Assembly: GCA_964484505.1 (NCBI GenBank)
Contig: CAZAFB010000002.1
Coordinates: 9,679 to 73,678 of the forward strand
DNA length: 64,000 bases
Reading direction: 5' to 3'
Origin: an uncultured Bdellovibrionales bacterium
GTDB lineage: Bacteria; Patescibacteriota; Minisyncoccia; Moranbacterales; GWC2-37-73
In this document: positions 37,271-37,366 of the stretch, piece by piece
How positions within the stretch are numbered: position 1 is the stretch's first letter
How the letters are laid out: every line of letters starts with the position of its first letter
Program-made: the position numbers and the translations under genes
Notes under the pieces: model-generated
What the model was told of the DNA's origin: nothing
What the model saw: the letters and a program-made list of their open reading frames with translations, nothing else
Databases searched by the model: none

Positions 37271-37366
37271 AATTCACCTAATTCACCTAATAAAATATCC
37301 AATTCAAAATTTTTGCTATTTGGCTATTTTTAATTTTATTTGGTGAATTAGGCAATTAGGCGAATT
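37271..37366. repeat. Palindromic MITE-like intergenic repeat, copy A (left arm aattcacctaattcacctaataaaat; right arm attttatttggtgaattaggcaattaggcgaatt)
   Basis: The two arms are reverse complements of each other. A second copy with the same arms lies at 46641-46750. Confidence 0.7.

Follow-up and report, generated by a model that had tools for sequence, protein, structure and literature searches.

Palindromic repeats beside gyrB and gatC are probably ORF-less members of an IVS-like cassette family of Patescibacteria

Results

Two homologous inverted-repeat elements separate co-directional genes

The DNA analysed here is a single 64-kb stretch (hereafter the window), whose gyrB has its best named matches in Candidatus Moranbacteria (Patescibacteria/CPR). 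It contains two homologous inverted-repeat elements of about 130 bp, copy A at 37252–37377 and copy B at 46625–46756, and each fills the spacer separating two co-directional genes. The gyrB ATG is 6 nt away from copy A and the upstream stop 29 nt; for copy B the distances to its neighbouring genes are 29 and 54 nt. The gene coordinates agree with the first-pass annotation, which had placed the copies next to the gyrB start and between ligA and gatC. The features are as follows.

35170–37245, minus strand: gyrB, with a true CDS of 691 aa, the cistron downstream of copy A
37246–37302, minus strand: 19 spurious codons at the gyrB N terminus, resulting from in-frame reading of the repeat from a TTG
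37252–37304, arm-HMM match on the plus strand: copy A arm adjoining the gyrB start, AATTTCC AATTTCC AATTCACCT AATTCACCT then AATAAAAT (33.0 bits)
37305–37324: central spacer of copy A, the hairpin loop, 20 nt
37325–37377, arm-HMM match on the minus strand: copy A arm adjoining the stop of the 124-aa gene, ATTTTATT TGGTGAATT AGGCAATT AGGCGAATT (31.4 bits)
37407–37781, minus strand: gene for a 124-aa membrane protein without a Pfam match, upstream cistron of copy A
46308–46595, minus strand: gatC, the cistron downstream of copy B (the identical gene on contig L122 matches Pfam GatC)
46625–46675, arm-HMM match on the plus strand: copy B arm on the gatC side, an outlying unit AATTCACCA at 46626, then AATTCACCT AATTCATCT AATAAAAT
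46676–46706: central spacer of copy B, 31 nt, homologous to the copy A spacer except for a 10-nt indel
46707–46756, arm-HMM match on the minus strand: copy B arm facing ligA, ATTTTATT AGGTGAATT AGGCAATT AGGTGAATT (40.3 bits)
46774–46786: a lone outlying unit belonging to copy B, reading AATTCGCCTAATT on the minus strand
46811–48985, minus strand: ligA, the cistron upstream of copy B (L122 and L134 give Pfam matches to DNA_ligase_aden and related domains)

The arms are arrays of tandem 7–9-nt units, each consisting of a constant CTAATT plus one to three variable bases (AATTCACCT, AATTGCCT or AATTTCC). The unit array terminates in CTAATAAAAT, and the partner arm opens with ATTTTATTAG; on the gene strand, the copy A arm at 37252–37304 is the 3′ arm (..ATTTTATTAGGTGAATTAGGTGAATTGGAAATTGGAAATT). 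Several tests confirmed that the palindromic repeat is real and present in two copies. The arm 26-mer AATTCACCTAATTCACCTAATAAAAT occurs exactly at 37271–37296 and with one mismatch at 46642–46667, and it had no match in any of 100 dinucleotide shuffles. With up to two mismatches allowed, the 13-mer unit has 12 matches in the window, 10 of them within the two elements. Copy B also has outlying units, one at 46774–46786, where an additional half-arm had been annotated at 46771–46790, and a symmetrical one at 46626–46638. An HMM made from 152 family arms detected exactly four arms in the 64 kb (24–40 bits), pairing as two elements.

The copies had been described as near-identical inverted arms around different spacers. 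The arms are indeed shared, but the right arms contain one extra 8-nt unit (AATTGCCT) relative to the left, together with mismatches, and thus are not exact reverse complements. The spacers turned out to be alignable: copies A and B show ~80% column identity from end to end, spacer included, with a 10-nt central indel, indicating that they are homologous elements and have more in common than their arms. RNA folding, which had been proposed as a check, predicted long hairpins on both strands for both copies (−29 to −42 kcal/mol; z −4.4 to −7.4 against shuffles). Neither copy contains an ORF or a PF05635 homologue, the spacers being 20 and 31 nt long and the whole 64-kb window having been searched, and neither has an Rfam match at the gathering threshold or at E ≤ 1. 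Rfam also found no rRNA in the window.

About 40% of the window is taken up by three giant repeat-rich ORFs at 1629–14330 (4233 aa), 15204–20528 (1774 aa) and 27397–34950 (2517 aa), the last of which has RCC1/WD40_RLD repeats and a DNA periodicity of 168 nt.

The repeat distorts the gyrB gene call

The longest gyrB ORF begins with a TTG at 37302 and encodes 710 aa, the first 19 of which are encoded by the repeat. That these 19 extra codons are the repeat read in frame, as first proposed, was borne out: the TTG lies inside the repeat, and the 24 closest gyrB homologues (P0002–P0025) all begin at the position of M20 (M-x-K-[DE]...). The repeat thereby corrupts gene calls, since the public gyrB model of the source organism (JGI call P0001, 710 aa) begins inside it and includes the spurious extension. 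At the ends of many CPR genes, repeat units also contribute codons in frame as well as stop codons. Because the repeat distorts gene models, annotation pipelines for Patescibacteria should mask it. Some close gyrB homologues (P0009, P0089 and P0090) have 1127–1137 aa and contain an intein (PF14890), which the window gyrB does not have.

The two slots are conserved while their occupants turn over

Among the contigs encoding an identical 124-aa protein (L121–L130), copy A is present in all, and copy B is also found in L122 and L123, with three substitutions. Four relatives with 82–88% gyrB identity keep the synteny ligA-gatC-gatA-...-124aa-gyrB, and in their ~100 kb, both orthologous slots included, we found no arm of the AATTCACCT family. 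The slots are filled in the conspecific contigs and without this family in the relatives. The orthologous spacers of the relatives mostly hold other palindromes of similar build, made of genome-specific units. In L134, CACATTGT and ACAATGTG units occupy both slots (9915–10000 and 6002–6057), the ACAATGTG unit being common to the two; the two slots of L133 (5420–5517 and 9871–10000) differ, one having ATTCGCA units and one TTTACAAA; and L131 has TACTAAT units (6544–6676). The 124aa–gyrB spacer of L136 is only 62 nt long and has no palindrome. The slots upstream of gyrB and gatC persist, with changing occupants.

A 5.8-kb island (37892–43684) lies between the two copies. It is present in the window and in L121 and missing from the conspecific L122, L123, L125 and L126; its junction overlap is 8 nt, and it abuts the 3′ end of a tRNA at 43690–43763. 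The island encodes a large serine recombinase (42103–43728; Resolvase, Recombinase and Zn_ribbon_recom) and several ORFs without a Pfam match, and L131 carries a similar recombinase/HTH_17/Phage_CRI module upstream of its 124aa–gyrB pair. The window and L122 are 99.8% identical on the gyrB side of this island, against 95.8% on the gatCAB–ligA side, a difference suggestive of inter-strain recombination at the island or close to it.

The family is spread across Patescibacteria

A scan of the genome collection returned at least 25 family loci, from Magasanikbacteria, a Parcubacteria-group genome, Portnoybacteria and unclassified Patescibacteria, and a metagenome scan with CTAATTCACCTAATAAAAT returned at least 120, all of the 120 listed carrying arm-HMM matches. 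Overall, carriers belong to the Magasanik-, Parcu-, Portnoy-, Uhr- and Moranbacteria, and the arms are near identical across the family loci from genomes and metagenomes. The arm HMM found at least 282 arms in 155 loci (1.18 Mb) and none in 95 non-CPR control loci (718 kb). The first-pass annotation had considered that only two copies, with no insertion polymorphism, would favour a regulatory palindrome; instead, well over 150 copies exist across Patescibacteria, and the two slots hold the family in conspecific contigs but not in the relatives with 82–88% gyrB identity. Its view of a non-coding repeat family rather than a gene-specific palindrome likewise stands, with many copies beside unrelated genes and no ORF in the window copies.

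Two further sets of matches were rejected. About 95 of the 120 matches listed for a Y/W-degenerate pattern are from Bacilli and other non-CPR genomes, where they fall in a conserved stretch that appears to be coding and, by eye, might be mutS. Carriage by phages was not supported either, as the five matches in viral contigs are lone 19-mers without arms; four of them have the same sequence, and one is in a giant-virus MAG, apparently within coding sequence.

We then characterized the context of 82 non-redundant short copies (median length 135 bp), with ORFs taken from a crude longest-ORF caller. Among the 73 classifiable copies, 67 (92%) lie between co-directional genes, three between divergent and three between convergent genes, compared with 391 of 535 background spacers of at least 100 nt that are co-directional (Fisher p = 2e-4). 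The median distance is 6 nt from the upstream stop and 10 nt to the downstream ATG, and at some loci the stop of the upstream ORF lies within the first unit of the element. Short elements are essentially the intercistronic spacer itself. Both traits that define the family, inverted CTAATT-N(1–3) arms with CTAATAAAAT / ATTTTATTAG and an intercistronic, co-directional position, were found in the window copies.

The near identity of arms across deep CPR lineages, together with their absence from sister species, fits a horizontally spreading element better than a host regulatory site. A selfish and mobile nature of the element may be inferred from this distribution, not from a mechanism; on that reading, a noticeable share of the scarce intergenic DNA in reduced CPR genomes would be selfish repeat rather than regulatory sequence.

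Some arms carry additional structure. At L180 (6863–7001) the 5′ arm is tandemly triplicated with a 45-nt period (AATTTCTAATTGTCTAATTTCTAATTCACCTAATACAATACAAT twice, then a normal arm), showing that arms grow by tandem duplication. Short G+C-rich hairpins (ACCACCCTTCGGGTGG...; CCCGCCCGCATCGCC...GGCGGACAGG) are nested inside the A/T-rich arms at L078 (~2233–2265), L158 (~9650–9680), L054 (~7130–7155) and in the 3′ arm of L276, and look like a second, nested small repeat.

Long forms encode a four-helix-bundle protein

At ten loci selected by their arms, a PF05635/TIGR02436 ORF lies 0–56 nt from the arms, with arms on both sides in eight. The ORFs encode ~125 aa, are 67–100% identical to one another, and match PF05635 '23S rRNA-intervening sequence protein' (E = 7e-13) and TIGR02436 'four helix bundle protein' (E = 2e-19). 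The sole PDB relative of the protein is 2RLD (E = 1.4e-8, five chains), and a PADLOC search with the protein gave no match. The layout of the ~500-bp long form is host stop, 5′ arm, ORF, 3′ arm, host ATG. Its 5′ arm consists of CTAATT-N(1–3) units, mostly AATTCACCT, ending in CTAATAAAAT(G), and its 3′ arm is the inverted copy (ATTTTATTAG, then AGGTGAATT units); the ATG of the ORF overlaps the conserved AATAAAATG boundary. At every locus whose contig includes the upstream neighbour, this gene and the ORF share their direction; the ORF is sense to the host operon. The cassettes of L234 and L196 apparently lie between secD- and secF-like genes, the flanks having been judged by eye. No rRNA was found by Rfam in the ten long-form loci, and the gene tables of the neighbourhoods contain no reverse transcriptase or TR/VR pair.

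The association of protein and arms was examined in both directions. A jackhmmer search over every ORF of 1.9 Mb of loci returned 12 PF05635 homologues, 10 of which are bracketed or directly abutted by arms, and found none in the 64-kb window or in the loci of the relatives. A search with the protein only returned 4571 relatives; the best 120 of these are all at least 70% identical, and the named sources among them are Moran-, Uhr-, Sung- and Magasanikbacteria. As an independent test, we inspected three contigs picked by the protein alone, and the same arms flank the ORF in all three: L263 (Moranbacteria GW2011_GWE1_35_17), L266 (Uhrbacteria, between ybeY and dagK) and L271 (a 1.08-Mb contig). 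In total, 13 loci (10 selected by arms and 3 by protein) have arms around a PF05635 ORF.

A more distant version exists at L168, where tandem-unit arms of another kind (GATACAAG and TTACAAA units) surround a PF05635 ORF with 36% identity. Three protein-picked members of this subfamily have their own A/T-rich inverted repeats and co-directional housekeeping neighbours, with L272 after yceG, L274 between enolase and iPGM, and L276 before dnaJ.

At L212 (10132–11315; also in L093 and L112), a dprA-like gene, identified by eye from its N-terminal sequence, lies inside an inverted repeat of ~190 nt per side. This repeat comprises AATTCACCT-family arms and further matching sequence, and its outer flanks are inverted repeats as well.

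The window itself has other spacers built of tandem 7–9-nt units, at 46219–46300, 44637–44744, 50844–50940, 54197–54289 and 52926–52984, and further ones at 20630–20680, 15130–15203, 15010–15050 and 44040–44087. Their units are TACAAA, TACGAA, ATTCGCA/ATTCGTG, ATTCAATAC and TTCCGTA, often in inverted arms, and the TACAAA-type spacers resemble the arms around the four-helix-bundle ORF of L168. These spacers may be solo arms of sister cassettes.

The short form may arise from the long form by loss of the ORF

Three observations connect the two forms. At L196, L243, L180 and L271, the order is 5′ arm, ORF and then a complete short hairpin (5′ arm, loop, 3′ arm), so that two 5′-type arms in direct orientation surround the ORF and a deletion between them would leave exactly the short element. 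Short forms retain AATAAAAT[GT]YCMAAT, which matches the first codons of the cassette ORF. When short-form spacers were compared with the interiors of long forms, 52 of the 96 spacers gave matches, compared with 21 of 96 shuffled controls, and the matches were confined to the extreme ends of those interiors. The anatomy of the elements, their family membership, intercistronic position and patchy distribution, and the link with PF05635 cassettes are direct observations. We infer that the window copies derive from the cassette, are co-transcribed with their neighbours and are processed by RNase III, and we consider them probable ORF-less members of a selfish, IVS-like PF05635 cassette family that is widespread in Patescibacteria.

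The proposed course of events is the following. A full-length cassette (~500 bp) would occupy the spacer separating two host-operon cistrons, oriented in sense with them, where it appears to depend on host read-through transcription. In short copies the ORF would be gone, leaving the arms plus a few tens of bases from the inner termini, a likely route being deletion between the repeated arms. The window copies would be co-transcribed with 124aa–gyrB and ligA–gatC and, once transcribed, fold into an AU-rich stem of ~35–45 bp. By analogy with ORF-bearing and ORF-less 23S IVS, this stem is a likely RNase III substrate, and a cut there would separate the flanking cistrons. The effect of the window copies on the host is probably near neutral.

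The possibility that the hairpin structure itself is under selection was rejected, because the complementarity of an element's own arms is no greater than that with the arms of other elements, and no covariation was detected. For the inner 12 nt, own and cross pairings gave on average 6.6 and 6.8 in-register pairs, and the outer-arm duplex energy averaged −25.7 kcal/mol for own and −27.4 kcal/mol for cross pairings; the unit order also differs between arms. The arms act as a conserved recognition sequence, with the hairpin a by-product of their inverted arrangement. The four-helix-bundle protein is the obvious candidate for the recogniser, although this is speculation.

We tentatively put forward a broader scheme, one that we regard as possible and no more than that. 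PF05635 genes with repeat-built arms might form an undescribed class of mobile cassettes without a recognisable recombinase, in which a pentameric protein would recognise its own tandem 7–9-nt units, as DNA or RNA, and promote spread or retention. Protein subfamilies would travel with different arms, the 23S IVS would be the rRNA-resident branch, and the many other tandem-unit palindromes in intergenic spacers of the source genome and related CPR genomes would be solo arms of sister cassettes. We know of no recombinase or nuclease activity of PF05635 proteins.

Alternative explanations

The first-pass annotation had regarded the repeat as a small non-autonomous mobile or REP-like element. As a description of a non-coding repeat family this was broadly right, whereas a strict MITE or REP assignment did not hold, with no target-site duplication visible, no transposase partner and no REP hallmarks. 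A classical MITE or REP would be DNA mobilised in trans by a transposase (a RAYT, or that of an IS sharing its terminal inverted repeats), with the PF05635 ORF as occasional cargo or a frequent neighbour. Much about the family would suit such an element: small size, A/T richness, high copy number, patchy phylogenetic spread, and terminal inverted repeats without coding capacity, as in the window copies. Arms conserved in sequence without covariation are also what would be expected of protein-binding terminal inverted repeats, and in L212, L093 and L112 they bracket another gene, the dprA-like one. However, no common direct repeat is visible at the 10 junctions inspected, although the outer ends of the arrays are fuzzy and there is no clean empty site. 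No arm pair surrounds a transposase-sized ORF in 1.2 Mb of family loci, which at 1–20 kb each could miss a distant partner; the only recurrent enclosed gene is PF05635 (13 of 13 for the AATTCACCT-arm subfamily), the dprA-like gene being confined to one lineage. The hallmarks of REPs, namely imperfectly palindromic 20–40-nt units, a conserved 5′ GTAG and a RAYT, were not seen in these loci, the arms here being ~50 nt of tandem A/T-rich units. We therefore consider this explanation unlikely. The presence of a PF05635 ORF in the full-length relatives ties the element to the 23S rRNA IVS rather than to IS-derived MITEs.

A cis element serving the host, whether an intercistronic operator, a terminator or attenuator, or a hairpin for translational coupling, appears considerably less probable still. 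In the coupling version, the AGGTGA (SD-like) arm would be masked by the TCACCT (anti-SD-like) arm for as long as the stem had not been melted by the upstream ribosome. The strictly intercistronic position, a few nucleotides from stop and start codons, would suit such a role, as would the AGGTGA units located 9–11 nt before the ATG at several loci and the palindromes of similar build in the same two slots of the relatives. Yet the flanking genes are unrelated between loci (secD/secF, ybeY/dagK, gyrB, gatC and others), and the last AGGTGA is ~25–40 nt from the two window start codons. The resemblance of the units to SD and anti-SD sequences is probably incidental in the source genome, most of whose genes lack an SD. 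There is no U-tract, both elements proved free of terminator-like and promoter-like sites when scanned, and copies are depleted between convergent genes (3 of 73). Close relatives do without the AATTCACCT-family element, and a regulatory site near identical across CPR phyla and missing in sister species would be unexpected.

Gene starts in the window mostly have A/T-rich leaders without a Shine-Dalgarno sequence, with AAGGAGG in a few (25575–25886, 61365–61700 and 61760–62908).

Specific host functions were also considered and rejected. The arms contain no promoter hexamers in an arrangement with acceptable spacing, and the scan of the gene strand was empty. An intrinsic terminator does not agree with A/U-rich stems that have no U-tract and are not enriched between convergent genes. 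A DnaA-box cluster or origin near gyrB does not agree with a second copy 9 kb away, with hundreds of further copies beside unrelated genes, or with their absence from sister genomes.

A TIGR-Tas guide array or another known structured RNA is hardly conceivable: TIGR arrays are common in CPR and have short repeats with palindromic parts, but their real units are 36-nt RNAs with box C/D motifs, two 8–12-nt spacers and an adjoining Tas gene (PMC12045711), whereas the units here are 7–9 nt, contiguous, and without spacers or a Tas gene, and neither element had an Rfam match.

Discussion

Taken together, the window copies are better described as ORF-less members of an IVS-like, PF05635-associated intercistronic cassette family of Patescibacteria. 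The literature that we searched contained no description of such a family. The origin and function of the 23S IVS and its S23p ORF have been open questions since the early 1990s. Here, an IVS-type ORF with its arms occurs at hundreds of intercistronic sites in streamlined CPR genomes, along with abundant ORF-less derivatives. These loci offer a large natural data set on binding of the arms by the four-helix-bundle protein, on cassette movement and on RNase III cuts in operon transcripts.

Among known systems, IVS with an S23p ORF occur in the 23S rRNA genes of Leptospira, Coxiella, Xanthomonas and Brucella, and ORF-less IVS of ~100 nt in those of Salmonella and Yersinia. The family resembles them in that its long forms have a PF05635/TIGR02436 gene enclosed by terminal inverted repeats that pair into a long stem, in that ORF-bearing and ORF-less versions exist, and in that the ORF is sense to a host unit whose transcription is strong. 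In Coxiella, the 23S IVS contains an S23p ORF and a 28-bp terminal inverted-repeat stem that is cut by RNase III (PMC4990558). It also has tandem GACAGAT heptamers upstream of the ORF (PMC4990558), comparable with the CTAATT-N1-3 units by the ORF start here, and the origin and mobility of 23S IVS are regarded as unexplained (PMC4990558). Unlike these IVS, the cassettes are located between protein-coding cistrons rather than in helix 25 or 45 of 23S rRNA, and a single family reaches high copy number across many Patescibacteria; excision by RNase III would apply here by analogy.

The short copies share with MITEs and palindromic repeats (Correia/NEMIS, ERIC, RUP, BOX, REP/BIME and Rickettsia RPE) a non-coding, palindromic sequence of ~100–150 bp, many intergenic copies, presumed co-transcription with genes and the ability to distort gene calls. 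They differ in that the arms are arrays of 7–9-nt tandem units, that no target-site duplication, IS or RAYT partner was found in the loci, and that the related long form has a four-helix-bundle gene in place of a transposase.

PF05635 is the family of, and homologous to, the DGR protein Avd (PMC10053308). The cassette protein has the same fold and family (PF05635; PDB 2RLD), but in contrast to Avd its ORF stands alone between housekeeping genes, with no RT or TR/VR in the neighbouring gene tables. Finally, although the cassettes encode no recognisable nuclease domain and possess long repeat-built inverted arms, they resemble the seg/mob homing-endonuclease genes of phage T4 in being small sense ORFs between co-directional essential genes, in their apparent reliance on host transcription and in their patchy occurrence among relatives.
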